From contig CBDCFN010000016.1 of the NCBI GenBank assembly GCA_965216315.1, positions 2,240,001 to 2,304,000 on the forward strand: DNA of 64,000 bases. Direction: 5' to 3'. This document shows positions 11,849 through 59,459 of this stretch, piece by piece (position 1 is the stretch's first letter; every line of letters begins with the position of its first letter). Both the position numbers and the translations under genes were made by a program. The notes under the pieces were generated by a model that worked only from the letters and a program-made list of their open reading frames with translations, was not told the DNA's origin and did not search any database. Source of the DNA: a bacterium (GTDB taxonomy: Bacteria; UBA10199; 2-02-FULL-50-16; JAJFLM01).

Positions 11849-11910
11849 TTATCGGGTCGGCCAATAATCGAGTTTGGGGCCGGGAGGGCTTTCAGTGGAC
11901 AGTTGAACAC
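11849..11910 (-). promoter_or_regulatory. Sigma28-like promoter AAAC-N16-CCGATAA (11849-11875) with palindrome GTGGAC-AGTT-GAACAC (11895-11910) 19 bp upstream
   Basis: Matches the motif pair repeated across the window. Confidence 0.65.
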
Positions 11911-11962
11911 ACCGAGGAAAGCCCTTTACTCACCCGCGATTTTCTTGTTACCCCTCGATTCT

Positions 11963-12253
11963 ATGCAGCTTAGCCGCGAAGAAGTTGAAAAGATCGCCGA
12001 CCTGGCCCGGCTCAAAATCAGCCACGAAGAGGCGGATAAGCTGGCCGGCCAACTCAGTAATATCCTGACCCTGATGGAGGCGCTGAACCGGCTCGACACC
12101 GAGGGCATCGAACCGACCTCTCACGCCCAAGATGAAGGTACTCCCTTGCGCGAAGATGTCGTCGTCAAAAACACGGTCCGCGATGCCATTCTCGATCAGG
12201 CTCCGGAGCGGGAAGACACCTTATTTAAGGTGCCCAAGGTGATCCAGTCATGA
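11963..12253 (+). CDS. gatC: Asp/Glu-tRNA amidotransferase subunit C
   Basis: EEVEKIA.LARL, EPTSH, LRED, FKVPKVI; overlaps gatA start. Confidence 0.95.
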
Positions 12254-13713
12254 ACTTATATGAACTCACGCTCCATGATCTACACGACAAACTCCGCACC
12301 AAGGAGGTGAGCTCCAAGGAGGTCACGGAATCCGTGCTCGGTCGTATCGAGGCCGTCGAACCCAAGGTCGCGGCTTACATTACCCGGACCGCGGAGCGGG
12401 CCCTTCAAGATGCCGCGCGCGCCGATGATTTTATTGCCAAGAACGATGAGATCAATCCACTGACGGGAATTCCCATCGCGCTCAAAGATATCTTTCTCAC
12501 TGAAGGGATCCCGACCACCTGCGCCTCGAAGATACTCGACGGTTTTATTCCTCCTTATAACGCCACCGCCGTCGAGAAAATGAATCAAGCCCATTGGGTC
12601 TTGTTGGGCAAACTCAACATGGACGAATTTGCGATGGGGTCTTCCAACGAGACCTCACACTTCGGTACTGTGAAAAATCCCTGGAACCTCGAATGCGTAC
12701 CCGGCGGCAGCTCCGGCGGCAGTGCCGCAGCCGTCGCCGCCGATGAATGTGTCGCCACGCTCGGCACCGATACCGGCGGATCGATTCGCCAACCCGCCGC
12801 GCTCTGCGGCGTCGTCGGACTCAAGCCGACCTATGGCCGCGTTAGCCGTTACGGCGTCATCGCCTTCGCCTCGTCACTCGACCAAGTCGGACCGATTACC
12901 AAGGACGTGCGCGATTGTGCGTTGATGTTACAAGCGATCGCCGGCCATGACCCCAAAGACTCGACCTCCGTTGATATTCCCGTCCCCGACTATAGTGCGA
13001 CCCTCGGCCAAGACATCAAGGGTCTCAAGATTGGTATCCCGAAAGAATTTTTCGTCGAAGGCTTGAGCCCCCAAATAGAAGCAGCGGTGCGCACCGCGAT
13101 CAAACAATTTGAATCACTCGGCGCAATAGTCAAAGAGGTCTCACTGCCGCATACCGAATATGCCGTTCCGACCTACTACATCCTGGCGCCCGCTGAAGCT
13201 TCGTCAAATCTGGCCCGCTACGACGGGATTCGTTACGGGTACCGCGACCCGGTCCCGCAGGACTTACTTGAGTTGTATAAAGAAAGTCGCTCCAAGGGCT
13301 TTGGAGACGAGGTCAAACGCCGCATCATGATCGGAACCTACGTCTTGTCGGCAGGCTACTACGACGCCTACTATCTCAAGGCGCAAAAGGTACGAACCTT
13401 GATTAAAAAAGATTATACGGATCTCTTCGATTCCGGTGCAGTGGATCTGATCGTGGGGCCGGTCAGCCCGACTCCCGCCTTTAAAATCGGTGAAAAGACC
13501 GATGACCCCCTCGAGATGTATCTGTCCGATGTCTTAACGATAGCGGTCAATCTCGCCGGGCTGCCGGGCATGTCTTTGCCCTGTGGATTTGTCGACGGGC
13601 TACCCATTGGTTTGCAGCTTATTGGCCGTCCGTTCGGGGAAGAAAAGATGTTACAGGCCGCCCATGCCTACGAACAGTCGACGGACTGGCACCAACAGCG
13701 CCCTTCTCTTTAA
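12250..13713 (+). CDS. gatA: Asp/Glu-tRNA amidotransferase subunit A
   Basis: [51 protein letters not shown]. Confidence 0.98.
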
Positions 13714-13735
13714 CTTGATTGAAATGAAATGCGCT

Positions 13736-14116
13736 TTAAGCGCGGTGACGATTGAGATGGCGTGGACGAATGTGACGAATGTCTAAACTCTGACCGGAAT
13801 AGCGGTCCTCATGGCGTGCGAGCCGGCGGCGACCTTCAAGACGATCCAGTTCATGACTGTCACTCGAGAAGTCCCCGGATCTATCTTCAGGAGAAGAATC
13901 GTCGGCATAGAGTCCCGGCTGGATGCTACCGATCCCGTCACCACCCCCCAGCGCCTCAATTTCTCTAATGCTGAGACCGGTCTCTTGCGCGATCATGTGA
14001 GCATCGGTGACTCCGGCTTCTATATAAGCCATGGCCTGCTCCCGGGGAGTACGACCAAAGGACGTGTCGCCACCTCTATTATTATCAATGTTCATGTTCG
14101 GCCCATCTATTGCCAT
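13736..14116 (-). CDS. Hypothetical protein
   Basis: AAGGA Shine-Dalgarno before ATG; sigma54 site immediately upstream. Confidence 0.55.
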   Translation of the reverse strand: MAIDGPNMNIDNNRGGDTSFGRTPREQAMAYIEAGVTDAHMIAQETGLSIREIEALGGGDGIGSIQPGLYADDSSPEDRSGDFSSDSHELDRLEGRRRLARHEDRYSGQSLDIRHIRPRHLNRHRA

Positions 14117-14142
14117 AATTAAAATCCTTCAGGTCTATTCAT

Positions 14143-20778: not shown

Positions 20779-21450
20779 TCAGATCCTCGGTGGAAAAGAC
20801 CATGGGGGTATCGGCTGGGGAGCATTCAAGGACGGCGGCTGGAAATTCTCGAAGGGGTGGAAAGCTGGTTCCTCTTCCTGTACCGGCACCTCATCAAAAG
20901 GGTTGTAAGTGGGATCTTCAATATCCGGGCCTTCGATGATCGGAATCTCGAGCGGAATCTCTATCGCAATCGTCGGTATATACTCGGGCAAGGCAATCAT
21001 CCCCAATTCAATTTCCTCGAAACGGATATTACCGAAATCAACAGCGGCTTCGCTCGGTTCAATCTTGATATAGGGAGAGAGTAGACTCATTTCTTTACCG
21101 AACATCAACGGAATGGCGGTGTCATTCCCCAGGGATAAATCGATCGTGTAGTACTCTCCCGTCCGAACGTAGAAACTAAACGAGCAGTCGGATTCTGTCA
21201 GGTAAGAACGCTCCTTGCCACTGAGGTCCGTCACGATGATCGGACCGGCCGAACAAGCCACTCCCCCGAGGCTCAGGCCCTGGAGCTCAACATCGTGGGC
21301 CCATGGCACAAATCCCGTGACCTGTCGGTATTCATCCGGTGGATTCCCAATCTCGCTGCCTCCTTGCAAGTCGAAGACTTGGGTCTCCCCCCCACATGCG
21401 ACCCCCAAACTAGCAATCAAAACCAATAAAATGAAAAATCGTTTACCCAC
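20779..21450 (-). CDS. Lipoprotein of the GNP-motif family
   Basis: Lipobox GVAC, then GGSEIGNP; DCSFSF.V..G.YY domain; overlaps the end of the TIGR02147 gene. Confidence 0.8.
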   Translation of the reverse strand: MGKRFFILLVLIASLGVACGGETQVFDLQGGSEIGNPPDEYRQVTGFVPWAHDVELQGLSLGGVACSAGPIIVTDLSGKERSYLTESDCSFSFYVRTGEYYTIDLSLGNDTAIPLMFGKEMSLLSPYIKIEPSEAAVDFGNIRFEEIELGMIALPEYIPTIAIEIPLEIPIIEGPDIEDPTYNPFDEVPVQEEEPAFHPFENFQPPSLNAPQPIPPWSFPPRI

Positions 21451-22306
21451 GCTGCGGCTCTCCTTCCATCTCCGTAAAAGGGATCATCTGAATTCCCAAA
21501 AACACGACGTCTTCCGGCTTATCGTCATCCGCAACCAATTGAAGAATTTCGCGTCGAAACTCCTGAATCTTCTGTTTGAGTTGTGGAAGTCGTTTACGTG
21601 CAATACCCAATGTTAAGGCGCTCACGTCGCGCTGTTCCTTTGCGATAGCGGGCAGGCGCTCTTTGACGATGCCCAACATATTTTGATGATATTGCATGGA
21701 GATCTTCGACACGGCATCCGCGCCTGTCGAGACGAGCGGCTCAGCCTGTTCCCAACGCAGTCGGCCGTTATCGTTTAAGCGTCTGATAAACCGCAGACGT
21801 TCCAATAACCGAATCGATTCAAGCACGGTTTTCTCGTCGACTGCGGGCACCAAACGTGAGGCAATATTCTTGAGAGACCCATCAAAGTCCGCAGCGACAA
21901 TGAGCTCGCGAATCACCGGATGATACCAGTGCGTCCAATATTCATAGTGATCGATAGAAAGCGGTTTCAGCTCATAATATTGACGGAGCTTCACGAGCTT
22001 GCGATAGTATTGTTTTTTGTGGCTCTCCGACTTGGCCTGATTGAAGCAGACGAGGGCACGAAAATAGTCCCTTTGCTGCCGGTCCAACTTTAAACCCTTG
22101 ATAAATTTATTGAGGCTGCCATCGGTAAGGTTGCGCTCCCCGTCCATGACACGCTTGTACATATTCGGGGACTGAAAACCCGCCAAGCGCGAAAACATCC
22201 GCAGCGAGAACCCAAAACTTGACTTCGCTTCCTCGTACCACGCGCGCAAAAAGGCGCGATAGTCCAGAAAGTCGAATGGACTTATATTGACTAAATTTTT
22301 CTCCAT
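21443..22306 (-). CDS. TIGR02147/DUF4423-family HTH protein, copy 1
   Basis: F..LDYR.FL..WY, FS.R.FS..AG..S, G.RNL, V.FNQAK, WYHPVIREL, RDVS.LTLGI, I.EFR.EI. Confidence 0.9.
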   Translation of the reverse strand: MEKNLVNISPFDFLDYRAFLRAWYEEAKSSFGFSLRMFSRLAGFQSPNMYKRVMDGERNLTDGSLNKFIKGLKLDRQQRDYFRALVCFNQAKSESHKKQYYRKLVKLRQYYELKPLSIDHYEYWTHWYHPVIRELIVAADFDGSLKNIASRLVPAVDEKTVLESIRLLERLRFIRRLNDNGRLRWEQAEPLVSTGADAVSKISMQYHQNMLGIVKERLPAIAKEQRDVSALTLGIARKRLPQLKQKIQEFRREILQLVADDDKPEDVVFLGIQMIPFTEMEGEPQRG

Positions 22307-28276: not shown

Positions 28277-28315
28277 ACGCACCTCCATAAACCCGCCAAT
28301 TTTTTAGTTCCGCCA

Positions 28316-39858: not shown

Positions 39859-39919
39859 TTATCGAAAGAATAAAGGAAATGTTGTATACAGCGGAAAATA
39901 TCTGTTGACTCAAGTCAAC
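39859..39919 (-). promoter_or_regulatory. Promoter CAAC-N15-TCGATAA (39859-39884) with GTTGAC-TCAA-GTCAAC (39904-39919) 19 bp upstream
   Basis: Perfect palindrome at the conserved spacing. Confidence 0.75.
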
Positions 39920-40779: not shown

Positions 40780-41628
40780 TTACGCTCTTTCATGTTTTGT
40801 CACCGGCAGCATCTGGATACTGAGCAAGACAACATCATCTGGATTGTCATCGTCAGCAACCAACTGGAGGATTTCGCGTCGAAACTCCTGAATGCGTTTT
40901 TTGATCTGCGGGACTCTTTCTTTAATAATTCCTAAAGTCAGAGCACTGACATCCCGTTCTTTTTGTTCCACCTCGGGAAGCTGCCCTTTTAATAAATCAA
41001 ACAAACTCTGGTGATAATTTAAAAGCACGAGGGAATCGGCTTCGGCACCGCTCGTTACAAGCGGTGTCGCCTGTTTCCACTTATTGGTCACCGCATCACG
41101 CTCAATAAAATGAAGTCGCGCCAACAATTCGACGGACTTTTTTACTTGCGCGGGAGACACTTCCGGCTGCAATCTTTTAGCCAACCACTCGATTGAACCG
41201 TCAAAATCCTTAGAAATGATCAACTCGCGCACAACCGGATGATACCAGGTTGAAAAATACTCGTAACGATCCTGCGCAAGTGGCTCTAACTGACTGTAGC
41301 GTTGAGAACGAATCAACTTCTTATAGTAAGCGTTTTTTTCCGCGTGCGTTTTCGCCTGATTAAAGAAGACGAGATTACGAAAGTGCTCGCGCTCCGGACG
41401 CTCCAGTTTGATTCCTTTAATGAATTTCTTGAGGCTTTCCTCAGTCAGGTTACGTTCGCCATCCATGACGAGTTTAAAAATATTGGAGGATTTAAAGCCG
41501 GCTTGCCGGGAAAAGACCCGATATGAAAACCCGTACCGCTCTTTGGCCGATTCATACCAATCGCGCAAGAAGGCCCGGTAATCCATATAATCGAATACTG
41601 AGACGTTATTGTTGCCGTTGTTACCCAT
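40780..41628 (-). CDS. TIGR02147/DUF4423-family HTH protein, copy 2
   Basis: Same motif set as copy 1 (DYR.FL.DWY, FSYR.FS..AG, WYHPVVREL, RDVSALTLGI). Confidence 0.9.
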   Translation of the reverse strand: MGNNGNNNVSVFDYMDYRAFLRDWYESAKERYGFSYRVFSRQAGFKSSNIFKLVMDGERNLTEESLKKFIKGIKLERPEREHFRNLVFFNQAKTHAEKNAYYKKLIRSQRYSQLEPLAQDRYEYFSTWYHPVVRELIISKDFDGSIEWLAKRLQPEVSPAQVKKSVELLARLHFIERDAVTNKWKQATPLVTSGAEADSLVLLNYHQSLFDLLKGQLPEVEQKERDVSALTLGIIKERVPQIKKRIQEFRREILQLVADDDNPDDVVLLSIQMLPVTKHERA

Positions 41629-41826: not shown

Positions 41827-41888
41827 GTTGACCCAGGTCAACAGATAATCCTGACGAAACGCAACGAAGACTCGAACGAATCCGATAA
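41827..41888 (+). promoter_or_regulatory. GTTGAC-CCAG-GTCAAC (41827-41842) 19 bp upstream of promoter CAAC-N16-CCGATAA (41862-41888)
   Basis: Perfect palindrome; extra GTCAAC half-site at 41811. Confidence 0.75.
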
Positions 41889-42522: not shown

Positions 42523-42528
42523 AAACAG

Positions 42529-42597: not shown

Positions 42598-42608
42598 CGT
42601 TCACTCGT

Positions 42609-42670
42609 GTTGACTGACGTTAACAGATAAACTTTTTGCAACGCAACAGTGTGTCGGTAGGTACCGATAA
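42609..42670 (+). promoter_or_regulatory. GTTGAC-TGAC-GTTAAC (42609-42624) 19 bp upstream of promoter CAAC-N16-CCGATAA (42644-42670)
   Basis: Motif pair with conserved spacing. Confidence 0.75.
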
Positions 42671-42770: not shown

Positions 42771-42841
42771 GTTAACTTACGTCAACAGATAAAGCCTTCG
42801 TTAACGAATATTAAACAACATCGTTTGCGAATAACCGATAA
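42771..42841 (+). promoter_or_regulatory. GTTAAC-TTAC-GTCAAC (42771-42786) 29 bp upstream of promoter CAAC-N15-CCGATAA (42816-42841)
   Basis: Motif pair. Confidence 0.7.
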
Positions 42842-43247: not shown

Positions 43248-44435
43248 CTAGGGTTGCGCCGTAAACGAAGTCGTTGCGGCCTTGGTCTTACCGCCCGTCC
43301 CGCAGTCGATTTCATCGACCTTGACCTCGTATTCGGTCCCGGCGGCAAAGGGGTCAACGCCGTGCTCGCACGCGATCTCATCCGCCCCCAGCTGATGGTT
43401 GGTGCAATCGACGTCGATCGCGAGTCCTTTGGGCTGAATAATCAGCGCGCTGGGAAAATCGATCAGGCCAAGATGATATTTGCAGCCCAAGCGAACAATC
43501 ACCTGTTCCGAGAGGCCTACGCCCGTCTGACCGTTGAAGGGATAAATTCTCAAGACCGGAACCATCCCCCCCAAATCTTCCTCACGACAAGGTGAGCCGG
43601 GATCATTGTCATCGATAAAACCATTGAGGTCACAATCCCGCTCCATTTGATCAAGTACGCCGTCGTTATCATCGTCCGTGTCGATCGCATCCGAGTCCCC
43701 ATCCTCGTCGCGGTCCGTATAGATCTCCGGATTGTGTTCCGGAATCGCGTCAAGACCCTCGATCTGCACCCGACCTAAGTCAACGGGTTTCTCGGCCGGG
43801 AGCCCGACGTAAAACTCATTTTGGCGGATAAAGGCGCGCTGCTTACTGAGATGTTCCATCTTCACGACCAGGCGCGCGACGAGGTCACCGGTCTTTTTTC
43901 GGAACTCCAGCATATAAGCGCGCTTGGTCGGCACAGCGAGCTTAAAAGAGCAATCCGATTCAATTCTCGTAGTGAGCTCTTGTCGTGCAGAGTTGATCGC
44001 GGTCACGGTCGCGGCCGGACAGACCTTGACTACCGCAATTTTAGTCGCCTGCTCGGCCCATTCCGTCCGGATGTTTACCAGACTCATCTGCATGAGCGGC
44101 CTGATATCCTTATACGGCAATTCGCGCACCGGGCTCTCGATCAGCTGCCGTTCCTCTTCCACGGGCTGCAGCTGACCGATGATCAGGCGTAGCGGAGCCG
44201 GATCCTGATCGTAAGGTGTTCCCGGCCGTGGCCCTGGTCCCGGATCAGTCGGCGTCGCTTCCGGATTCCCGAAATCCGTTCCCCCGAACTCTGGGTTCCC
44301 GAAATCCGTTCCGCTGATCGTTTGCTCGGTATCGACAATGTCCGGTGGTGCGGTATCCGCTCCCTGCGGCTGGACGCACGCGGCAATAAAAAAGACGAGC
44401 GCAATAGTACTGAGCAACCGGCTCCAGCAGGTCAT
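43248..44435 (-). CDS. Lipoprotein of the GNP-motif family (2 copies) with DxDxDG repeats and Ig-like C-terminus
   Basis: IAAC lipobox, SGTDFGNPEFGGTDFGNP, DCSF.L.VP...Y; ATGA overlap with TIGR02147 copy 3. Confidence 0.82.
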   Translation of the reverse strand: MTCWSRLLSTIALVFFIAACVQPQGADTAPPDIVDTEQTISGTDFGNPEFGGTDFGNPEATPTDPGPGPRPGTPYDQDPAPLRLIIGQLQPVEEERQLIESPVRELPYKDIRPLMQMSLVNIRTEWAEQATKIAVVKVCPAATVTAINSARQELTTRIESDCSFKLAVPTKRAYMLEFRKKTGDLVARLVVKMEHLSKQRAFIRQNEFYVGLPAEKPVDLGRVQIEGLDAIPEHNPEIYTDRDEDGDSDAIDTDDDNDGVLDQMERDCDLNGFIDDNDPGSPCREEDLGGMVPVLRIYPFNGQTGVGLSEQVIVRLGCKYHLGLIDFPSALIIQPKGLAIDVDCTNHQLGADEIACEHGVDPFAAGTEYEVKVDEIDCGTGGKTKAATTSFTAQP

Positions 44436-45292
44436 GATCCACCTGCCTCGTCCGTCGGCTCTTCGACCATCGGGAATAAATAGATATTCAACTGCAAGAC
44501 CTCCTCCGTCTCCGTATCATCGGCGACCAGCTTGAGGATGTCCTGTCGAAATTTTTCGATTTTCTTCTTTATCTGGTGCAGGCGGGGCTTGGTTACTCCC
44601 AAGGTCAACGCCCCCATATAGCGCCTCGGTGCCGGAACGGCCCCAAGCAGGTGGGGGAGAAGCTTCATCATAGTCTTATGATAATTGAAAAGCTCAACGG
44701 ATTCAATAGCGGTCCCGGGGGCGAGCACGGAAGAGCTCTGTTCCCAGCGTCCTGACGGGCTGCGATGGATCAATTCGAGCTTTTCCAAGAGCTCGAGCGA
44801 GGCTTCGACCTGCTCCAATTTGATCCGTTTTCCGAGCCGCGTCATCAACCATTCCGGGGTTCCATCATAGTCCTTGGCCGTGATGAGCTCGCGAATGACC
44901 GCATGGTACCAAGCCGAACAATATTCATGCTGATGGGCTCTAATCGGTTGTCTTTGTTGGTATTTTTTCGAACGCAGCAACAAGTTGTAGTAACGATCCT
45001 CTTCTTCATGGGTCTTGGCCTGGTTATACGCGACCAGATTGCTAAAAAAATCGGCGTCCTGGGCCGCCAGCTTCAAGGCCTTAACCGTCTTCGGCAAGGT
45101 ATCCGCAGTTAAGTTCCGTTTTCCCTGAATGACCAACATGATGTAGTTGGAGGACTTGAACCCGGCGCGTTCCGCAAATCTTCGATAGGACATGGAGGCC
45201 CGGGTCTTTTTCTTCGCCTCAAACCAGTCGCGCAAATAGGTACGATAATCGTTGTAATCGTAGAGATTTATGTCCTCTGCCGGCTCCGACAC
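44432..45292 (-). CDS. TIGR02147/DUF4423-family HTH protein, copy 3
   Basis: DYR.YL.DW, SYRRFAERAG.KS, G.RNL, WYHAVIREL, LTLGV, I.KFR.DIL. Confidence 0.9.
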   Translation of the reverse strand: MSEPAEDINLYDYNDYRTYLRDWFEAKKKTRASMSYRRFAERAGFKSSNYIMLVIQGKRNLTADTLPKTVKALKLAAQDADFFSNLVAYNQAKTHEEEDRYYNLLLRSKKYQQRQPIRAHQHEYCSAWYHAVIRELITAKDYDGTPEWLMTRLGKRIKLEQVEASLELLEKLELIHRSPSGRWEQSSSVLAPGTAIESVELFNYHKTMMKLLPHLLGAVPAPRRYMGALTLGVTKPRLHQIKKKIEKFRQDILKLVADDTETEEVLQLNIYLFPMVEEPTDEAGGS

Positions 45293-47272: not shown

Positions 47273-48121
47273 TTAAGCCTTGGGGCTCGTTAACGGAAAC
47301 ATGTGAATATTGACCTGAACGACCTCTTCCGGGGTTTCATCTGCGGAGACGAATTTGAGGATGTCCTGACGAAATTTTTGGACTTTTTTCTTGAGTTGCT
47401 CCAGCCTTTCTTTACGCACCCCGAGGGTCAATGCACTGATATCGCGTCGTTCTCCCGGTACGGTATCAAGAACCTCCTTGGTCAACTCGAGCATATTATA
47501 ATGATATGCAAATAATTCGATCGAGCGAACATCCGCCCCCGTCGAAACTAAACTATGGCTCTGTTTCCACCGACCTTTTTTATTGCGCTTGGCGAAGCCC
47601 AAGGTTTCTAATAATTCGAGAGAATGCGTCACATCGGCAACAGATACTTTCGGAAAAATCCGTTCCGCAATCCATTCAGCAGTCCCGTCATATTCTTTTG
47701 CCGTAATGAGTTCGCGAATGACGGCATGGTACCAACGAGAGCAATATTCATATTGGTGCGTGCGTATCGGTTCTAACTGGTTATACTTTCTCGACCGCAG
47801 CATGCGTTGATAATAACGCTCTTTGTCCCGCTGATGTTCCTCCTGCGTATAATGAACCAGGTTTTCAAAAAATTCCGTCTCCTGCTTGTTCAGCTTGAGC
47901 GCCTTGGCCACTTTAGGAATGCTTTCTTGGCTCAAATTTCGCTTGCCCTGCAACACCATCATAATGAAATTCCAGGACTTGAGGCCGGCACGCTCCGAGA
48001 ACTTTCGATACGACATGCCCGCCCGGGTCTGTTTAGCAGCTTTGTACCAATCGTTTAGAAAATCACGATAATCTAGATAACTAAACGGGCTGACCTGATT
48101 GGCAATGCGTGACTGTGACAT
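47273..48121 (-). CDS. TIGR02147/DUF4423-family HTH protein, copy 4
   Basis: Same motifs; closest to copy 3 (PIR.HQ.EYCS.WYHAVIRELITAK.YDGT). Confidence 0.9.
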   Translation of the reverse strand: MSQSRIANQVSPFSYLDYRDFLNDWYKAAKQTRAGMSYRKFSERAGLKSWNFIMMVLQGKRNLSQESIPKVAKALKLNKQETEFFENLVHYTQEEHQRDKERYYQRMLRSRKYNQLEPIRTHQYEYCSRWYHAVIRELITAKEYDGTAEWIAERIFPKVSVADVTHSLELLETLGFAKRNKKGRWKQSHSLVSTGADVRSIELFAYHYNMLELTKEVLDTVPGERRDISALTLGVRKERLEQLKKKVQKFRQDILKFVSADETPEEVVQVNIHMFPLTSPKA

Positions 48122-48443: not shown

Positions 48444-48515
48444 TTATCGGATATATGAGGTCCGCGGATGCGGATTATCAGCAGAATATTCTATAATCAG
48501 TGTACTTTAGTACAC
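48444..48515 (-). promoter_or_regulatory. Promoter CATC-N16-CCGATAA (48444-48470) with GTGTAC-TTTA-GTACAC (48500-48515) 29 bp upstream
   Basis: Perfect palindrome and motif pair. Confidence 0.7.
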
Positions 48516-49760: not shown

Positions 49761-51239
49761 TTATTGTCTCAACAGCGCACGGCGCCCAAACAACACGCCT
49801 AATGCTGCCAAGGCCATCACGAAGAGGCCGAGTGTATTTGCCGCGTGAGGCGTCGCGTTCAGGCTACAACCACCCGATGTCGCGAGTGATTCACTTTCTT
49901 CACCCGTTCCATCACCGACGATAACTTCTTCATTTTCCGCCGGATTCTCTTCCGCATCCTCTCCCTTATCCGCGTCTATGTTTATAAGTTCGCCTTCACA
50001 TTGATCATCACAACCGTCGCCATTTTCTTCATTCCCGTCGTCGCAGTCCTCTCCCTCATCCACAATACCATTGCCACAGAGACCTTTTTCGAAGGCCCCG
50101 ACATCCGAACTGACCCCAAGAGGCCTCGGAAAACCGCGCTGGTCTTCAGCCAGCTTGACAATGATGGCGGCATCAATAGCGAGGCTGCCGGCTCCAAGCG
50201 CATGTGTGCGGGTGTCTCCGCCGTTAAAAGCCAAGGCTTGCAACTTAAGATCGGCACTGTCGACTCCCGATTGATCCGTCGTTTCCGTAAGGTTACAGGT
50301 TCCGTCGACATCAATGTTGCCACCACCCGATGTAATCGTCCCGAGACCACCGGACGTATCGCAATTCGCGTCAACGCCGCCGGATCCGTCTACCTGTGCC
50401 AACAAACTATTATACAAATTCACTTCGCCATCACCGGCAACGAGATGAGCCGCTAGCAGGTCAGCACGATTATGATAGAAAGTGACATGCCAGAGATCCA
50501 CATCGTCCGCGAGACTCACCAGCCCGCCACCGGTCGGCGCCGTATTGTTACTGATCGTGACATTCACCAACTTGATGTTGCTAGAGCCCGTTCCAACGGC
50601 AACACCGCCACCAAAATCGGCAGCGCTATTGTCGCTGACCAAACAGCGCTCCATATCAAGCGTTCCGGTTCCTATCGCCAGACCGCCGCCAGCGTCGGCT
50701 TCATTGCCGATAAGCTCGACATCACGCAAAATAATATCACCGGATCCATCCGAATAGATTCCGGCACCGGGTTCCGTGGGGCTCGATCCACTCTGAATCG
50801 AGAGTCGCTCAAAAGTTACGTTCGCATTATTTAAAACGTGAAACACTCGACTGTGTTGACCACCACTGATAATCGGCAGAGGCAATTTCTTAAGCGGGAT
50901 AGCACCCGAACTCAAACTCGGGTCCCCTTGGATGATGACATCATCCGTGATATCAAAATCGCGCAGGCCATTCGCATCATCATCGACAAGCATCGTCTCA
51001 TCGATTCCATAAATGCCGTTGGCAATGATAATCGTATCTTCGCCGGGATTGCTATTCGCTAGATTAATCGCCGCACGCAAGGTGCATGACGTTCCGCCAC
51101 CGAGCATGAAGAAACAGATACCACCATCTTCCGTTCGATCCACGGTATAAGTCTCCGCGTGGACTTGAGCCGCCGCCAACATCGCGACAACCACCGCGCT
51201 AATAATTGAGAATTTTTTAATCGTTTCCAGTATACCCAT
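49761..51239 (-). CDS. Secreted CSLREA/beta-helix protein with full MYXO-CTERM-like anchor
   Basis: CTLRAAI..AN, DQRG.PR, one Cys repeat, GGCSL-spacer-TM-RR tail. Confidence 0.88.
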   Translation of the reverse strand: MGILETIKKFSIISAVVVAMLAAAQVHAETYTVDRTEDGGICFFMLGGGTSCTLRAAINLANSNPGEDTIIIANGIYGIDETMLVDDDANGLRDFDITDDVIIQGDPSLSSGAIPLKKLPLPIISGGQHSRVFHVLNNANVTFERLSIQSGSSPTEPGAGIYSDGSGDIILRDVELIGNEADAGGGLAIGTGTLDMERCLVSDNSAADFGGGVAVGTGSSNIKLVNVTISNNTAPTGGGLVSLADDVDLWHVTFYHNRADLLAAHLVAGDGEVNLYNSLLAQVDGSGGVDANCDTSGGLGTITSGGGNIDVDGTCNLTETTDQSGVDSADLKLQALAFNGGDTRTHALGAGSLAIDAAIIVKLAEDQRGFPRPLGVSSDVGAFEKGLCGNGIVDEGEDCDDGNEENGDGCDDQCEGELINIDADKGEDAEENPAENEEVIVGDGTGEESESLATSGGCSLNATPHAANTLGLFVMALAALGVLFGRRALLRQ

Positions 51240-51277: not shown

Positions 51278-51350
51278 TTATCGACTCCGGTGGGGTCTAA
51301 GTTGAGCGTCAATGAGGAATATTTACCTAAAACAGTGTACATGAGTACAC
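51278..51350 (-). promoter_or_regulatory. Promoter CAAC-N16-TCGATAA (51278-51304) with GTGTAC-ATGA-GTACAC (51335-51350) 30 bp upstream
   Basis: Perfect palindrome and motif pair. Confidence 0.75.
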
Positions 51351-51513: not shown

Positions 51514-52026
51514 TTAGGTGTTCACAAAAGGATTAACTACCTTTGGCGCTTTCGACGTGGCTGGTTTGTATGGTCCGCCGCGATAGACGAACGGACTCTG
51601 ATTCGCCCTCTTGTCGAGCGCGTCGATCTCGTCCGTCGAAAGGCGATGTTCCGCACAATAGTCATGAATCTGATCGGATAGCTGCCAATAATTACTGCGA
51701 TTTCCGGCCTTAATCTGACTGGCCGCTTGCTTCATCATCCCTTCCGCTTCGGCTTTGTAGAGCGCATGATTTTCCGTGCGTTCCAACGCAACGTTTACGG
51801 CACGTAATTTAACCGTTTGTACGTAACTCTCCGGCAAAAAAGAACCGAGTTCTTCCGCCCGAACGGCCAAATGATCCAAAGCCGCGTCGACAGTGACAAG
51901 ACTTTCAAACTGGCCGGCCTCAACAAGCTCAACCACGCGCGTCATATCTTCATGTAAACGCAGTTCCTGGCGATTCATCTGATTATAATTAATATTCGGT
52001 AATTTGTGTGTTGCTCGTATAGACAT
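51514..52026 (-). CDS. Hypothetical helical protein, no signal peptide
   Basis: GGGGAG before ATG 52026; own promoter and terminator. Confidence 0.7.
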   Translation of the reverse strand: MSIRATHKLPNINYNQMNRQELRLHEDMTRVVELVEAGQFESLVTVDAALDHLAVRAEELGSFLPESYVQTVKLRAVNVALERTENHALYKAEAEGMMKQAASQIKAGNRSNYWQLSDQIHDYCAEHRLSTDEIDALDKRANQSPFVYRGGPYKPATSKAPKVVNPFVNT

Positions 52027-52079
52027 TGGTCTCCCCCAATACACTTTGAGTTAATATTTTAATTCTCCAATGTCGCTTA

Positions 52080-52197
52080 TTATCGGGAGATGCCATTGAA
52101 ACGTTTCGTCGGCGCCTAAATTAACGTGTACCATGGTCCACTAGAATACCTACCACTCGACAGATACAACACAACGCACACACAATCGAACCGATAA
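52080..52197. promoter_or_regulatory. Divergent promoters (52080-52106 minus, 52172-52197 plus) sharing GTGTAC-CATG-GTCCAC (52126-52141)
   Basis: Palindrome is 19 bp from the left -35 and 30 bp from the right -35. Confidence 0.75.
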
Positions 52198-52220
52198 ACT
52201 ATTTGCATAAGGAGTTTGTC

Positions 52221-52745
52221 ATGAGCATTTATTCACTTCCTAAAACACAGGACGAACAAAAAAATATTCTGACAGAGTCGGCGTCAGAACAGGAAGAAGA
52301 CTATTCATTTACCATTGACGGCAACTTAATGGTCGACACGGGGGCCAATATAAGCACGGATAAGGCCACCGCTTCGATGACTTTTCAGCTGGGCGGCACT
52401 TTCTTTTGGCATCTCCACCCTGACATCTCGCCCGGCTTTTACGTCGGTGCCCGCTATCACTTAGTTCCGGAACGCGCCCATCGCGTCCACCGTGTCGGCC
52501 TCACTGCGAGTCCCGCGTTGATGATTCATCTAGCACGCACAACAATCATCGCCGAGGGCGGTCTACGCCCTCAATATAATCACACTGACGCGGCTTTTGA
52601 TCTCGGCGGCGGAGGTTCCATCAATATTGTATTTTCCGATTGGGGCGTGGGCGTTTTTGCGGAGCAACACGACATTCTCATGGATAGAATGCGCGATGGC
52701 GTGAGTCTTGGTATCCGCCTCTTTACTCATTTTATCCTGTACTAG
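52221..52745 (+). CDS. Hypothetical beta-strand-rich protein, no signal peptide
   Basis: TAAGGAG before ATG 52221; alternating Gly/hydrophobic strands. Confidence 0.7.
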   Translation: MSIYSLPKTQDEQKNILTESASEQEEDYSFTIDGNLMVDTGANISTDKATASMTFQLGGTFFWHLHPDISPGFYVGARYHLVPERAHRVHRVGLTASPALMIHLARTTIIAEGGLRPQYNHTDAAFDLGGGGSINIVFSDWGVGVFAEQHDILMDRMRDGVSLGIRLFTHFILY

Positions 52746-52791
52746 GTCCTATCTTGCTTCCAGCATTGATTTAGTTTAAAGCTTGGAGCCC

Positions 52792-53631
52792 ATGTCCACC
52801 GCGATTTCAATCAAGGGGCTCTACAAGAAGTATGGCAAGTTTGAGGCCTTGCGCAATGTGGAACTCGAAATCCCACAAGGCGAATTTTTCGGCCTGTTGG
52901 GTCCTAATGGGGCCGGTAAAACAACCCTCATCAAGACGATTGTTGGCCTCGCGAAAAAGAATGCCGGCTCGGTTGAAGTCTGCGGCCTGGATGTCACTCA
53001 ACACTATATCCGGACACGTGCCTTGATCGGCCTTTCTCCGCAAGAACCCAACGTCGACCGCTATTTTAAGGTCCGCAAATTGATGGAGTTTCAAGGCGGC
53101 TTTTATGGACAGTCACGAACGGAACGGCGGCACCGCACGGAAGAGTTGATTGAACAGTTCGGATTGACTGAAAAAATTAACACTCAATTCTGGCGGCTCT
53201 CCGGCGGCATGCAAAAGCGCGTCATGGTCGCGCGTTCGATGATGGCGTATCCTAAAATCCTCATCTTAGACGAGCCTACTTCGGGAGTGGATGTGGAACA
53301 ACGCTATGAACTTTGGGAACAGCTGCGTGGCCTTAATAAAGATGGGACAACGATTATCCTCACCACTCACTATATTGATGAAGCCGAACAACTCTGCGAA
53401 CGAGTCGGCATTATTGATCAAGGACAGATCATCGAAATAGGCCCTCCTCAAGAATTGATTCAACGGCACTGCCAACAATACTTCATCGTCAATGGCGAAC
53501 AGCATCAACAAATCAATGGACTGCAAGTCAATGACGTCCAAATTGAAAAAGGCAGCCTCGAAAAGGTCTTTTTGAAACTGACAGGTCATTCCATTCATCA
53601 AGATGAAGCTCGGGAGGACACGTCCGCATGA
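52792..53631 (+). CDS. ABC transporter ATP-binding protein (YadG-like)
   Basis: GPNGAGKTT, LSGGM, ILDEPT, LTTHY. Confidence 0.95.
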   Translation: MSTAISIKGLYKKYGKFEALRNVELEIPQGEFFGLLGPNGAGKTTLIKTIVGLAKKNAGSVEVCGLDVTQHYIRTRALIGLSPQEPNVDRYFKVRKLMEFQGGFYGQSRTERRHRTEELIEQFGLTEKINTQFWRLSGGMQKRVMVARSMMAYPKILILDEPTSGVDVEQRYELWEQLRGLNKDGTTIILTTHYIDEAEQLCERVGIIDQGQIIEIGPPQELIQRHCQQYFIVNGEQHQQINGLQVNDVQIEKGSLEKVFLKLTGHSIHQDEAREDTSA

Positions 53632-54392
53632 AATCATGGAATGCAATCTCCACGCTGATCGAACGCGAGTTCTATCGTTTTTTCCGTCTTGCCGGCCAGA
53701 CTATTGCCCCACCGGTCATCATGACCATCTTATTTATTGTGATTTTCGGCTATTCACTCGGTAGTCGCATCCGTGAGATCTCGGGTTTTTCCTATATTAT
53801 CTATATCATTCCGGGGCTCGCGGGAATGGGCGTCATCAATAACGCCTATGCCAATTGCACCACGTCGCTTTTCATGGCGCGCAGTGACCGATCAATTGAA
53901 AACATCCTCGTCACTCCTATCAGCTATATACGTATCGTCTCTTCGATGGTCATGGGCGGCATGGCCCGCGGAATGATTGTCGGCGGCATCACCGTCGCGG
54001 TCGCCGTTCCTTTAACCGGACTCGAGATCGCATCAATCCCCGCCACGATAGGAGTGATGATCCTTGTCGCAATTTGCTTCGCGTCCTTTGGAGTCATCAA
54101 CGGACTCTGGGCTGAGAGTTGGGATCACGTCGCCACGGTAGCCAATTTCGTTATTACGCCGTTCATCTACCTTGGTGGTGTCTTTTATTCGATTTCCATG
54201 CTGCCGCCAACCTGGAGACAGGTCTCTGCCGGCAATCCACTTTACTACATGATTGACTCGATGCGCTGGGCCATCCTGGGCAGCAGTGATATCGATCCGT
54301 CAATCAGTATCAGCATCATCGCTGGGCTGGCCTTGATCACCTTTTCGACTGCTGTCTATCTATTTCGGCGCGGCTACAAACTCGTTGTCTAA
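53628..54392 (+). CDS. ABC-2 type permease (YadH-like)
   Basis: RE..RF, QTI.PP, PGL..M, YLGGVFY, NP.YYMI. Confidence 0.93.
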   Translation: MKSWNAISTLIEREFYRFFRLAGQTIAPPVIMTILFIVIFGYSLGSRIREISGFSYIIYIIPGLAGMGVINNAYANCTTSLFMARSDRSIENILVTPISYIRIVSSMVMGGMARGMIVGGITVAVAVPLTGLEIASIPATIGVMILVAICFASFGVINGLWAESWDHVATVANFVITPFIYLGGVFYSISMLPPTWRQVSAGNPLYYMIDSMRWAILGSSDIDPSISISIIAGLALITFSTAVYLFRRGYKLVV

Positions 54393-55209: not shown

Positions 55210-55782
55210 TCAAACTGGTCTGTCTAATTTTTTATATGTTAGCTTTTTTTCGTCTGGAATCACGGGGATGAGTTCGATCGACATCGTCATCATCTCTTCA
55301 GGAACGACATCATCGTCGACTAAATTGAGAAGTTTACTCCGAAACTCTCGGATTATTTTTTTGAGTTGAGGCAAGTTATCTCTAATGATTCCAAAAGTAA
55401 TCTCACTTAAATCGCGTTTACCCTGATCGAGGCTGAGTGTTTGAAGGCGATGCACATTACGAATAGCCATCAGTTCTAGATAGTGTTCCTTAATTTCGTC
55501 AGGGCTCTCAGCCTGATTTAAGAAGACGAGATGCCGAAAATACTCCGCTTCGTCGTCTTCCAAGCGCAAACCTCGAATAAATTTTCTTAAACTTTTTAGT
55601 GTTAGGTTGCGGTCGCCATCCATAACGAGCTTGAGGATATTAGAAGAACCAAACCCGGCATGTTGTGAAAAGATACGGAGAGAAAATCCGTAGGTCAGGC
55701 GCTTGGCACTCTCATACCAGTCCTTGAGAAAAGTCCTATAATCGAGATAATCATAGACACAGATGTCGGATACAATATTCAT
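55210..55782 (-). CDS. TIGR02147-family protein, copy 5, internally deleted
   Basis: N-terminal HTH part and C-terminal RD.S..T.GI part present; WYH..IREL block absent. Confidence 0.8.
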   Translation of the reverse strand: MNIVSDICVYDYLDYRTFLKDWYESAKRLTYGFSLRIFSQHAGFGSSNILKLVMDGDRNLTLKSLRKFIRGLRLEDDEAEYFRHLVFLNQAESPDEIKEHYLELMAIRNVHRLQTLSLDQGKRDLSEITFGIIRDNLPQLKKIIREFRSKLLNLVDDDVVPEEMMTMSIELIPVIPDEKKLTYKKLDRPV

Positions 55783-55816
55783 GCTAAACCTGTATCCGCT
55801 TTGATGCCCACTTTCC

Positions 55817-55842
55817 TTATCGGTCAAAGCCAAATTTTGTTT
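55817..55842 (-). promoter_or_regulatory. Promoter AAAC-N15-CCGATAA for TIGR02147 copy 5
   Basis: Motif match. Confidence 0.6.
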
Positions 55843-56448: not shown

Positions 56449-56752
56449 AATTATTCCTCCTTCGCCCCAATAAGCTAAGAGAAATTTCGGCACGTGAGTG
56501 GAAATGTTTCTCGTCAATTCAAACGAAACGTTAATCTTTGCATTCGTTTGGATGCGATTAGGACGGGACACCGCACGGGGATAACGATGCCCCGCCGTTG
56601 CGTTCGGCTAACGACGTGCACGCACCTCAACCGAGTCACGTACACTCCCCGGTCACCAGCTGTATGCACTCATTACAGTATTAAGATTTTGAATGGGAGC
56701 AAAGAAAAGAAACAAACGCGCAATTCTTTTTGCATTCATTTGTATGCAGCGA

Positions 56753-57199
56753 CTATGGAGTAACTGATTTGCGATTCTGAAACCAACCAATTCCCGCACC
56801 GAGTAAAGCGGCGATGGGCGCCGTCAACCAACCGAACAACAAGAGACTCCAAAAAGTAAAAGCAAGACTCCCATAGAGCCCATCGATCGGACCAATTGGG
56901 GGCTCATTGAGTGAAGAACGTGAGTCAATGATGTTTAAATAAAGTATATGAATATACCAAGTCACTGGATGCGACGCGATGCCGACGATCAATCCGATTA
57001 AGGCCCCGCGCTTGCCGTTGACAAAAGACCATTTCTTAATAACCAAGTACCAGAGTCCCAATGAGACGAGAAAGGCAGCCAGGCCCGCGGACCCAGTCAG
57101 TTGCATCCAACCCCCACCTTCCGCGGAAGCCAACACCAACATGGCGACAAAGGCACCCGTTAGTCCGAAAACCAATGCCGCCTTGACAGAACGAATCAT
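56753..57199 (-). CDS. Hypothetical four-TM membrane protein
   Basis: Four hydrophobic segments. Confidence 0.7.
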   Translation of the reverse strand: MIRSVKAALVFGLTGAFVAMLVLASAEGGGWMQLTGSAGLAAFLVSLGLWYLVIKKWSFVNGKRGALIGLIVGIASHPVTWYIHILYLNIIDSRSSLNEPPIGPIDGLYGSLAFTFWSLLLFGWLTAPIAALLGAGIGWFQNRKSVTP

Positions 57200-57314
57200 A
57201 TTCGAAGTCTAACTGATATCGACGAATCGTTCTACTACTCACACACTTACATTTACGACGTTTTGAGCTGTAATTATAACTGATGACAAGAAGCGTGCGG
57301 CTTAGTAAAGGAGT

Positions 57315-59375
57315 ATGTCGATGTCGGAACCTAAACACACGAATCGTCTCGCCCAAGAAAAAAGCCCGTATCTCCTCCAACACGCCCACAATCCGGTCGA
57401 CTGGTATCCCTGGGGCCCGGAAGCGTTTGAGAAAGCCAAGGCCGAAGACAAAGCGATTTTTCTCTCCATCGGTTACGCGACCTGCCATTGGTGTCACGTG
57501 ATGGAACGCGAGTCCTTCGAAAATGAAGAAATCGCTAAGATCATGAACGAACACTTTATCAATATTAAAGTCGACCGCGAGGAGCGCCCCGATGTCGATC
57601 AGATTTATATGACCGCAGTCCAGGCCATGACCGGCGGCGGGGGCTGGCCCCTCTCAGCCTTCTTAACACCCGAACGCACCCCTTTTTACGGCGGAACTTA
57701 TTTTCCGCCTGATCGCCGTTATGGACGCCCGGGCTTTCCCGAAATACTCGAAGAAATTGCGCGCGTCTGGCGCGAAGAACGCGATCGTGTCATCGGCACC
57801 AGCAAACAATTAACGGAGGTCATTGAACAAAACCTCACGAATCAACCGGGTGAACTTCTCGATGAAGCGGTCCTCAAGAAATTTTATCAACACACCTCCC
57901 ATAGCTTTGATGCCGAATATGGCGGCTTCGGCCCTGCACCGAAGTTTCCGCGGAGCGAGCAGATCTCGATCTTACTTCGGATCCATCGGAGAACCGGTGA
58001 AAAACGGGCTCTCGAAATGGCGACACGCACGCTGGATGCCATGGCGCGGGGAGGAATCTATGATCACTTGGGAGGCGGCTTTGCGCGTTATGCAACGGAC
58101 CAGCGCTGGTTGATTCCGCACTTTGAGAAAATGCTCTACGACAATGCCCTGCTCACGCGTTCTTATCTCGAGGCCTACCAGGTCACCCATAACGAAGACT
58201 GGGCGAGTATCGCTAAAGAAACTTTGGATTACGTCTTGCGCGACATGACGGCAGAGTCCGGCGGCTTCTTTTCCGCGGAAGACGCGGATAGCGAAGATGA
58301 AGAAGGAAAATTTTATACCTGGTCCGAACCGGAACTAAAAACCGTTCTCACGGAGGCCGAATTAAAGGAGTTCAAGCAGCTGTTTCCCCTCAGCCTTGCC
58401 AGCATACTCGATGGCAAGTTTGTCCTGCACCTGGACCCAAAAGCCCCCTGGCAAGAACGCTATACACAAGGCAATAAAGGGATTCTGCAAAAACTCTTTG
58501 AGCAGCGTGCGCGGCGAATACGCCCGCTACTGGACGACAAAATCCTTGCCTCCTGGAATGGGCTGATGATCAGTGCCATGGCGCAAGCGGCCGGCATTCT
58601 GCAAGAAGTGCGCTACTTGGCAGCGGCTCAAAATGCGATGCATTTTATCATCGACAACTTTTGGGATGGCGAGATCTTGAAGCGACGCTATCGTGCCGGT
58701 GAGGTGCGTTACAATGGTTCCCTCGACGATTATGCCTGCATCATCGCGGCCCTGCTCGACCTCTACGCAGCGGATTTTGACTCCCAATGGTTTACCCTCG
58801 CGGTTAATCTACAAAAAAGTGTGGATCGCTTATTTTGGGACGCGTCTGCAAGCGGCTACTACTACACGGATGCAACGGACAATTCACTGATCACTCGCAC
58901 CAAGGAACTCTACGATGGTGCCATGCCTTCGGGAAACTCCATCACGGCAATGAATCTCATCCGGCTTTACCATTACACCCTAGATGAAAGGTATCTGCAA
59001 CGTTTTCACGAAGTCATTCGTGCCGTTTCGGGGCGTCTCAAAGACAATCCCCTCATTGCCCCGGCGTTACTACTCGCCATCGACTTTGCAACAGATGAGC
59101 CGGCCGAAATCGTCATTGCCGGGATGAAGGATGATCCCTGCGTCCAAGAAACACTCAACGATCTCGCGCAGAGTTTTTTACCGAATAAAGTCGTTGCCCT
59201 TGCCGACAGTATGGATCCAGAGCGCCTCCAACAAATGCCACTTATCGAAGGCAAGGTGCCTCAGAACAATAGGGCCACCATCTATATCTGTAAAAACCAT
59301 AGCTGTCAGAAACCGGTACACGAATGGCCCAAAGCCAAGAAATCCTTAACTCCCAGTAAATACGATATTTCTTAG
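57315..59375 (+). CDS. YyaL/SPATA20-type thioredoxin-domain protein
   Basis: [55 protein letters not shown]. Confidence 0.95.
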
Positions 59376-59396
59376 CTCTCACCTTTAAGATTTCAT

Positions 59397-59459
59397 GTGG
59401 ACCTAGGTACACTGAGAATTATTTCAGGTACACAACAACGCCTCCACTCAAACCGATAA
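59397..59459 (+). promoter_or_regulatory. GTGGAC-CTAG-GTACAC (59397-59412) 20 bp upstream of promoter CAAC-N16-CCGATAA (59433-59459)
   Basis: Motif pair; extra GTACAC half-site at 59428. Confidence 0.72.

Follow-up and report, generated by a model that had tools for sequence, protein, structure and literature searches.

Phased palindromes upstream of sigma-28-like promoters as candidate operators of TIGR02147 (DUF4423) proteins

Palindromes and TIGR02147 genes in the window

The window analysed here is a 64-kb stretch of bacterial DNA (C16:2240001-2304000) from a 2.96-Mb, 16-contig genome (G000) that is 98% complete. It carries five genes for proteins of the TIGR02147 family together with a 16-bp palindrome, GTNNAC-N4-GTNNAC, which stands at either of two distances, one helical turn apart, upstream of promoters resembling those of sigma-28 (FliA) and which is regarded here as a candidate operator of these proteins. 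The exact palindrome occurs nine times in the window (starts at 39904, 41827, 42599, 42609, 42771, 48500, 51335, 52126 and 59397), where 0.42 occurrences are expected (standard deviation 0.64, maximum 2), and none of 100 dinucleotide shuffles reached nine. At every site, on one or both sides, the end of the palindrome lies 39-41 or 49-51 bp from CGATAA, the -10 element, and 18-19 or 28-29 bp from the 5-nt nCAAC -35 box; the nCAAC or nAAAC box itself precedes CGATAA by 16-17 bp at all window sites except 48500.

A preliminary description of this DNA had reported nine such sites, all intergenic, at 19-20 or 29-30 bp from the -35 box. These gaps are the same as ours with the box edge shifted by one base, and all nine sites were found: eight are among the exact matches, and the ninth, at 11895, has one mismatch, as had been stated. 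The palindrome at 42599, which shares one half-site with that at 42609, had been overlooked. The intergenic location holds for all sites after correction of two over-long open reading frame (ORF) starts, 11903 (gatC) and 42711 (the LysM gene). Sites with one mismatch are not enriched in the window (20 against 16.0 expected, with 19 of 100 shuffles reaching 20), and the class was therefore kept out of the evidence; the case for 11895 thus comes only from its promoter spacing and its membership in a longer box, GTGTTCAnnTGTCCAC, which has six genomic copies including this one. Five of the copies continue with TGAAAGC, and the gap to CGATAA is 40 bp in four and 49 bp in one.

Read toward the promoter, the boxes of the window form a T class, GTT[G/A]AC-N4-GT[C/T]AAC followed by AGATAA (39904, 41827, 42609 with 42599, and 42771), a G class, GTG[T/G]AC-N4-GT[A/C]CAC (48500, 51335, 52126 and 59397), and a third class consisting of the asymmetric box at 11895; a further GTCCAC/GTTCAC class is located outside the window, near 94-105 kb of C16. 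The boxes are given below with their strands, and gaps are counted from the end of the palindrome to CGATAA.

11895..11910 (-): operator-like box reading GTGTTCAACTGTCCAC and then TGAAAGC toward the promoter; asymmetric, one mismatch; gap 40 bp; -10 at 11849-11855; gene 11363-11803 (-).
39904..39919 (-): T-class box GTTGAC-N4-GTCAAC, then AGATA; gap 39 bp; -35 at 39881-39885, -10 at 39859-39865; lipoprotein gene 39074-39853 (-), with a lipobox in the product.
41827..41842 (+): T-class box GTTGAC-CCAG-GTCAAC, then AGATAA; gap 40 bp; -35 at 41861-41865, -10 at 41882-41888; drives 41920-42522 (+), with the TIGR02147 gene 40780-41628 on the divergent side.
42599..42624 (+): three half-sites at 10-bp intervals (GTTCAC, GTTGAC, GTTAAC), which make up two overlapping palindromes, 42599 (gap 50 bp) and 42609 (gap 40 bp); -35 at 42643-42647, -10 at 42664-42670.
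42771..42786 (+): T-class box GTTAAC-TTAC-GTCAAC, then AGATAA; gap 49 bp; -35 at 42815-42819, -10 at 42835-42841; gene for a protein with a LysM domain, likely true start near 42891.
48500..48515 (-): G-class box GTGTAC-N4-GTACAC; gap 50 bp; -10 at 48444-48450, without an AAC -35 box; small ORF 48155-48376, then the TIGR02147 gene 47273-48121 (-).
51335..51350 (-): G-class box GTGTAC-N4-GTACAC; gap 51 bp; -35 at 51301-51305, -10 at 51278-51284; gene for a beta-helix/choice-of-anchor-Q protein, 49761-51239 (-).
52126..52141 (no single strand): G-class box GTGTAC-CATG-GTCCAC, common to two divergent promoters; to the left, gap 40 bp, -10 at 52080-52086, gene 51514-52044 (-); to the right, gap 50 bp, -10 at 52191-52197, gene 52203-52745 (+) and ABC transporter genes 52783-54392.
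59397..59412 (+): G-class box GTGGAC-CTAG-GTACAC; gap 41 bp; -35 at 59432-59436, -10 at 59453-59459; drives 59526-59939 (+).

The genome encodes 14 TIGR02147 paralogues, and all five of those in the window exceed the NCBIfam cut-off of 50 bits. Two of these five were scanned against Pfam, where the C-terminal half matched DUF4423 at 122 and 138 bits (cut-off 30). T-class boxes surround the gene 40780-41628 and G-class boxes surround the gene 47273-48121, which makes these two the candidate readers of the respective classes. The paralogues are listed with their predicted recognition helices.

21443..22306 (-): TIGR02147 paralogue, 262 bits; helix QSPNMYKRV; one-mismatch box 22353-22368 upstream.
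40780..41628 (-): TIGR02147 paralogue, candidate T-class reader, 278 bits; DUF4423; helix KSSNIFKLV; overlaps the downstream lipoprotein gene 39930-40793 by 14 nt.
44432..45292 (-): TIGR02147 paralogue, 260 bits; helix KSSNYIMLV; directly upstream there is no palindrome; 4-nt overlap with the lipoprotein gene 43248-44435.
47273..48121 (-): TIGR02147 paralogue, candidate G-class reader, 278 bits; helix KSWNFIMMV.
55210..55833 (-): shortened TIGR02147 paralogue, 125 bits; internal deletion of about 100 residues, with the helix-turn-helix (HTH) head and the last 60 or so residues retained.

The last of these may be a decaying copy or a head-plus-tail variant. The longest-ORF start of the gene 21443-22306 is 47 bp downstream of the one-mismatch box at 22353-22368 (GTTCAAAATTGTACAC), and neither CGATAA nor a clear sigma-70-like promoter was recognised at the usual distance from this box.

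Spacing and promoter class

Genome-wide, 33 pairs of an exact palindrome and CGATAA were found at gaps of 0-199 bp, of which 14 lie at 39-41 bp and 12 at 49-51 bp, the remaining seven being single counts at 55, 73, 102, 114, 125, 144 and 149 bp. The genome-wide spacing histogram, which had been proposed as a check of the window sites, is therefore clearly not flat (26 of the 33 pairs fall into the two classes). The same gaps recur among 60 related genomes, where a composite palindrome-promoter pattern gave 67 matches, compared with 7 when it was read backwards, and where 59 of the 67 lie at 39-41 or 49-51 bp; the arrangement on one face of the DNA, first proposed for the window, thus extends to the genome and to its relatives. 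No exact palindrome in the genome is closer than 39 bp to a CGATAA -10 element, and none occupies a repressor position.

The exact palindrome occurs 49 times in the genome, roughly 19 occurrences being expected when the shuffle rate of the window is scaled up, and a crude ORF map, which leaves 7.2% of the genome as intergenic DNA, places 31 of the 49 between genes, one at a gene edge and 17 inside ORFs. For further intergenic palindromes without an exact CGATAA, the distance is 17-20 or 29-31 bp either to a CAAC box with a degenerate -10 element behind it (CGAAAA, CGATGA, CGACAC or CGATAC) or to a sigma-70-like TTGAC. When any perfect inverted repeat of 6 bp was sought at the two gap distances, few further variants appeared (GTATTC-N4-GAATAC twice, and GTCTAA-N4-TTAGAC), and inverted repeats with 3-, 5- or 6-bp centres showed no enrichment there. 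The spacers between palindrome and -10 element have only 30-32% pairwise identity (maximum 57.5%), which argues that the spacing is kept independently and is not inherited from recent duplication.

The exception is the pair 42609 and 42771. A tandem duplication of about 165 bp (42526-42631 and 42691-42793) covers both of these palindromes together with AGATAAA, and in each copy a 35-nt word conserved at 94% identity and a terminator-like hairpin with a run of T precede the palindrome and AGATAAA. Owing to the second terminator-like hairpin, the promoter at 42664 would yield only a short RNA of about 75-90 nt, perhaps a small RNA akin to the 3' end of the gene 41920-42522; an Rfam scan of 39000-60000 returned nothing at gathering score.

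The promoter word, nCAAC-N16-18-CGATAA, is sigma-28 (FliA)-like. GCAAC followed by CGATAA occurs 47, 16 and 23 times genome-wide with spacers of 16, 17 and 18 bp, compared with 1-7 times at other spacings, and the shorter pattern AAC-N16-18-CGATAA has 244 matches against 64 when read backwards, about 180 above the control. Moreover, CCGATAA is enriched in intergenic DNA (98 of 655 copies, 15% against a baseline of 7.2%). The CCGATAA-like -10 element is of the sigma-28 type, and the -35 element, (G)CAAC(TTT), does not match the TAAA or TTAAG type, which would make the promoter a variant within the sigma-28 kind. Of 140 attack-phase promoters, 92 in Bdellovibrio bacteriovorus have the form TTAAG-N16-CCGATA and are assigned to FliA (Karunker et al. 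2013, PMC3627812). The best candidate sigma gene of the present genome (C16:350511-351410; L001:1333-2232) has FliA/WhiG as its top family, with 133 bits against a cut-off of 189.6. Because the -35 word differs and the sigma factor is assigned by likeness, the promoter is named only sigma-28-like. About 9 kb from the FliA-like sigma gene is an FlhA-like export-gate gene (C16:339137-341182, 698 bits, cut-off 772), and the flagellin Pfam families gave no match in this 98%-complete genome; the sigma-28-like regulon may have outlived a flagellum or may never have served one.

Only 20 of the 244 AAC-N16-18-CGATAA matches (about 8%) carry an exact palindrome, so that the box is an accessory element and not a part of the promoter. 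The association with one promoter class, as the preliminary description had it, stands insofar as most targets are sigma-28 (FliA)-like, but the same distance between box and -35 element is also found on sigma-70-like promoters. Outside the window, at C16:2161600-2187400, at least 12 sigma-28-like promoters follow one another on the minus strand, about 1.3-3.7 kb apart, and most of them share another conserved upstream stretch (TTTGCGAATTTTCGTCA-like) instead of the palindrome, which suggests either a second accessory element or a repeated gene family.

TIGR02147 proteins and their putative half-sites

Several lines of evidence connect the palindromes with TIGR02147 proteins. Within the genome, 12 of the 20 palindrome-bearing sigma-28-like promoters lie within 5 kb of a TIGR02147 gene, compared with 16 of 224 palindrome-free ones; within 3 kb the counts are 7 of 20 and 13 of 224 (Fisher p = 3e-4, a value that overstates the case because the sites are clustered). 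Among the 60 relatives, none of the ten without a TIGR02147 match has a composite match, whereas three or more composite matches are present in 6 of 15 genomes with five or more paralogues and in 2 of 45 with fewer. The number of paralogues and the number of composite matches correlate with a Spearman coefficient of 0.46, to be read with the reservation that related genomes are not independent samples.

The association is not confined to this lineage. Of 80 TIGR02147 loci returned, 70 were usable, and they come from UBA10199-type 'Deltaproteobacteria', Fibrobacterota and metagenome-assembled genomes of Oligoflexales. A perfect palindrome of the form GTnnnn-N4-nnnnAC lies within 350 nt upstream of the TIGR02147 gene in 22 of the 70 (shuffle mean 0.33, maximum 3; about 67-fold enriched), and the density of the same palindrome is 22 in 25,176 nt of upstream DNA compared with 2 in 105,810 nt elsewhere in those loci. 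In orthologous groups the half-sites are invariant while the flanks have diverged, and the layout is box-N18-TTGnnn-N17-TAnnnT-N6/7-ATG. The orthologues with the SSNIFKLV helix in G000, G001 and G051 have a T-class box 200-240 bp upstream, in a divergent intergenic region.

Half-site and predicted recognition helix vary together across the TIGR02147 loci. GTATCC is accompanied by SPNFLKRV in 4 of 4 cases, GTGTTC by TSNF[LM][MW]LV in 5 of 5, GTATTC by SPNFLKLV in 3 of 3 and at two more loci, GTATAC by N[FM][FL]KLV in 4 of 4, and GTTTTC by SSGF[IL]KLV in 2 of 2. Helix identity is 0.70 between loci with the same half-site and 0.46 between loci with different ones, a difference that none of 5000 label permutations reached. 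In the present genome, three paralogues have a helix of the type NF-I-M-[LM]-V, namely 47273-48121 and 44432-45292 in the window and C16:2320632 outside it (helix KSTNFIMLV, with GTGTAC-TCTAA-GTACAC upstream), and GTGTAC boxes adjoin two of these three genes. For the 'hybrid' boxes (GTGGAC with GTACAC), a degenerate GTGKAC half-site was preferred to heterodimers as the explanation, since both orientations occur.

The AlphaFold model of the TIGR02147 protein, built from 57 sequences, has a predicted local distance difference test (pLDDT) score of 88.6. Residues 15-93 match the heads of XRE/Cro/cI-type proteins (3pxp with Z 8.8 and a root-mean-square deviation of 2.6 over 76 residues, DdrO 7.1, P22 c2 6.6, C.BclI 6.3), and residues 118-199 match winged helices (LexA 6.9, MarR, IclR). 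When two copies were predicted together, the homodimer score was 0.77, compared with 0.00 for the best of three controls; at least 96% of the contacts agreed between runs and the partner pLDDT was at least 79. Among proteins solved as one-chain pairs, 20 of 30 reach the mark applied to this score, and among those solved as single chains, 1 of 23. The predicted interface consists of residues 128-154 and 199-280 and leaves the N-terminal heads free, and a dimer of this modelled shape fits a site with dyad symmetry.

Two groups of neighbouring genes deserve mention. The proteins encoded at 39930-40793, 39074-39853 and 43248-44435 (all -), next to TIGR02147 genes, have in common, close to the N-terminus, short words of the form G-[TS]-[ED]-x-G-N-P, such as GGTEAGNP and GTDFGNPE, and match no Pfam or NCBIfam family; the first and the third carry a signal peptide of the lipoprotein type, and in 39074-39853 a hydrophobic stretch at the N-terminus precedes a Cys. 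Five genes in a row at 26462-38950 (-) encode large secreted proteins of 520-1099 aa, and one more such protein is encoded at 49761-51239 (-), behind a G-class box; these proteins have choice-of-anchor-Q domains and cysteine-rich, acidic 'myxo_disulf' repeats.

Proposed mechanism, alternatives and known systems

The explanation that we favour is that the palindromes are operators of TIGR02147 (DUF4423) proteins and that the boxes are placed for class I-type activation, and to this explanation as a whole, which is drawn from computation only, we give a rough probability of 0.6. Its two parts differ in strength. The boxes are probably TIGR02147 operators, as the preliminary description had proposed, considering the palindromes upstream of 22 of the 70 loci, the invariance of the half-sites, their co-variation with the helix and the proximity of 12 of the 20 promoters to TIGR02147 genes; what did not hold is a single operator, because the nine sites of that description comprise at least three half-site classes. 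Given such binding, activation is likely in view of the box geometry and of the weaker -35 boxes. In 24 palindrome-bearing promoters the extended -35 element is weaker than in 60 palindrome-free ones (G before CAAC in 20% vs 61%, and T at the three positions after CAAC in 29-41% vs 56-66%), a comparison with a bias, the palindrome-free promoters having been chosen by their AAC.

In this mechanism, the operators would have the general form GTnnnC/AC-N4-GT/GnnnAC, and each paralogue would form a homodimer through its C-terminal domain, with two free N-terminal XRE-type HTH heads reading the half-site variant of their own. If CGATAA occupies -12 to -7, the box would be centred near -60/-61 or -70/-71 at sigma-28-like promoters, on one face of the DNA. 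The dimer would recruit RNA polymerase as class I activators do, with the alpha C-terminal domain docking on the A/T-rich stretch between box and -35 element; such a stretch follows the box as AGATAA in the T class and as A/T runs in the promoters of the regulators themselves. The latter promoters, seen at several TIGR02147 genes, are sigma-70-like, and the position of their -10 element suggests that the mRNAs are leaderless, which would place the box centre at -61.5 and point to positive autoregulation. Since the box keeps the same positions on promoters of two sigma types, the contact would be with a part of RNA polymerase that does not depend on sigma, most simply the alpha C-terminal domain, and recruitment would work with whichever sigma factor is bound.

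Several observations weigh against this explanation, in addition to the bias of the -35 comparison. On the side of the sites, 48 of the 70 TIGR02147 loci have no perfect palindrome of this type upstream, and three paralogue-rich genomes, G018 (18 paralogues), G010 (10) and G024 (8), have no exact composite match; variant half-sites, among them GTGTCC-N4-GGACAC with a gap of 40 bp in G018, account for only a part of this. On the side of the code, loci that share a half-site also resemble each other more in the remainder of the protein (0.575 vs 0.454), so that orthology explains part of the co-variation signal. Nor is the correspondence one-to-one: the half-site GTTTAC accompanies KSINFxKFV in UBA10199-type genomes but NSTSWLLHL in Fibrobacteria, and the helix SSNIFKLV, which has T-class boxes in three genomes, has GCATAC-TCAA-GTATGC at C16:900337. 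Two predictions drawn from the code were not confirmed. A KSINF-type paralogue was expected in G060, where 5 of 6 matches are GTTTAC-N4-GTAAAC, and was not found among the 4 of 11 paralogues read, the best match being 59% identical with the helix HSTNFFMLV. Likewise, for the orthologue of the paralogue C16:97715 expected in G039 and G032, which are rich in GTCCAC-N4-GTGGAC, the best matches are only 48-52% identical; in G039 a distant paralogue (helix QSYLQMIM) does stand behind a box of the GTCCAC-N4-GTGGAC type. With regard to the protein, the fold Z-scores are middling by the calibration of the tool itself (6.3-8.8 over residues 13-96), and no Pfam HTH family matched the TIGR02147 N-terminus at E <= 0.01. 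Foldseek against the PDB gave no match at E <= 0.001, and a sequence profile search of the PDB gave only a chance calmodulin match (E 0.71).

The alternative that survives best accepts TIGR02147 as the binder and makes it a repressor, an anti-activator or a dual regulator, which would occupy or bend the UP-element region, exclude the alpha C-terminal domain, or form loops between boxes. Proteins of the XRE/Cro/cI type are mostly repressors, and DdrO, HigA and P22 c2 are among the closest structural matches; some promoters have arrays of two or three half-sites or two boxes (42599/42609, C16:104937/104966, 2115187/2115197), the DNA around the boxes is A/T-rich, and a site at -61 could indeed serve a repressor that blocks the UP element, which is a further point against activation. 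However, no exact box lies over the -35, -10 or start region, the smallest gap to CGATAA being 39 bp; the gap classes are one helical turn apart with centres at classic class I positions, box-bearing promoters have the weaker -35 element, and the same geometry appears on two promoter types. We therefore consider repression unlikely, though not negligible, beside activation from class I positions.

A second alternative attributes the T-class boxes, with their TTGAC-N4-GTCAA core, to the FNR-like regulator encoded at C16:937794-938504 (L005:792-1505, -), the link with TIGR02147 then being coincidental. The core resembles the FNR box, TTGAT-N4-ATCAA, and CRP/FNR proteins are textbook class I and class II activators; the gene in question is the only one in the genome for a full CRP/FNR protein, which carries a Cys cluster at its N-terminus, and the gene is succeeded by a stand-alone ORF for a cyclic nucleotide (cNMP)-binding domain. 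Nevertheless, the invariant bases of the box are G1, T2, A5 and C6, while the position of the G in the TTGA of the FNR box varies (G, A or T), and the GTGTAC and GTCCAC classes are left unexplained, as are the boxes upstream of TIGR02147 genes in other phyla. The distribution of the regulator is equally discordant: orthologues with more than 45% identity are present in many site-less relatives (G010, G013, G038, G049, G024, G017 and others), whereas G060, G056 and G052, with 6, 5 and 3 sites, have only matches of 26-29% identity. An FNR-like reader is thus very improbable.

That the boxes are not operators at all but chance matches, remnants of a duplicated promoter module, or RNA or DNA hairpins, is scarcely credible: the bare pattern is only modestly enriched genome-wide (49 against roughly 19), with 17 of the 49 in crude ORFs, and 42609 and 42771 do lie in a tandem duplication, but the bimodal promoter spacing recurs here and in 60 other genomes (7 matches backwards against 67), the spacers are unrelated in sequence, the stems have only 6 bp around a variable 4-nt centre, and the boxes, being upstream of the promoters, are not in the transcript.

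Beyond the favoured explanation, a wider proposal can be made, which we hold tentatively and regard as doubtful in its entirety. In UBA10199-type 'Deltaproteobacteria', Fibrobacterota and Bdellovibrio-like bacteria, TIGR02147/DUF4423 may form a large, hitherto unstudied group of class I-type activators, with a partly readable helix code (K-L to K-R and K to M accompanying single-base changes of the half-site); each member may share a transcript with an exported lipoprotein, which perhaps returns an envelope signal to it; and the paralogues may split a sigma-28-like regulon of about 180 promoters into local sub-regulons. If activation of this kind is true, it would be a rare case of accessory activators acting on the sigma-28 holoenzyme.

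The closest parallel in geometry is class I activation by CRP, for which the lac site is centred at -61.5 and the sites of other promoters at -71.5 and at further turns upstream. As in that system, a dyad-symmetric 16-bp site stands upstream of the -35 element, the allowed positions are one helical turn apart with putative centres near -61 and -71, the DNA from site to -35 element is A/T-rich and could offer a docking place to the alpha C-terminal domain, and the arrangement is independent of the core promoter type. Unlike CRP, the predicted binder would combine an XRE-type HTH with the winged-helix-containing DUF4423 domain and exists as many paralogues with putative half-sites of their own and mostly sigma-28-like targets, and both activation and the contact with the alpha C-terminal domain are putative.

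PlcR of the Bacillus cereus group is an XRE-type HTH activator whose 16-bp palindrome with a 4-bp centre lies upstream of many genes for secreted proteins, and the gene of the regulator is followed by that of an exported partner. The form of the palindrome and the order of regulator and exported-partner genes are shared with TIGR02147, and so would be the type of HTH and the role of activator. The difference is that PlcR has a tetratricopeptide repeat (TPR) domain that binds a small signalling peptide, whereas in TIGR02147 the corresponding part is the winged-helix/helical DUF4423 domain and the next gene encodes a lipoprotein; PlcR was not among the sequence or fold matches listed. With Cro/cI and the C proteins (C.BclI, P22 c2) the family would share a small HTH dimer, half-sites about 10 bp apart in a palindromic operator, an operator of its own before the gene and 'private' operators. 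Those proteins activate from sites abutting the -35 element and repress from sites overlapping it, whereas the box described here is 18 bp further upstream and no site in the repressor position was found.

On the promoter side, the likeness is to the FliA promoters of Bdellovibrio (PMC3627812), which have the CCGATA(A) -10 element and the 16-bp spacer and are used far beyond flagellar genes. They differ in the -35 element, which is (G)CAAC(T) here and not TTAAG or TAAA, and the presumed cognate sigma factor here falls under the FliA/WhiG cut-off; the passages on those promoters that were consulted mention neither an upstream palindrome nor an accessory activator. Among the titles and abstracts listed in a literature search for activators of FliA-dependent promoters, no upstream activator site on sigma-28 promoters was described, and a full-text search for TIGR02147/DUF4423 returned as its only mention a DUF4423 protein in a proteome table, the family being without a described function.

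Sigma-28-type promoters are usually viewed as independent of activators, and the present results suggest that they can perhaps be gated by upstream activators. What is new here is the two-class helical phasing genome-wide and in 60 relatives, the sigma-28-like identity of the promoters, the common -61.5 geometry on two promoter types, the site classes linked to paralogues, and the cross-phylum test of enrichment and co-variation. For TIGR02147/DUF4423 this provides a DNA motif, a position rule (the box ends 18 or 28 bp before the -35 element), candidate regulator-operator pairs and a candidate specificity code, in a family that is expanded in Fibrobacter, which degrades fibre, and in Bdellovibrio-like predators, where local regulators are poorly known.

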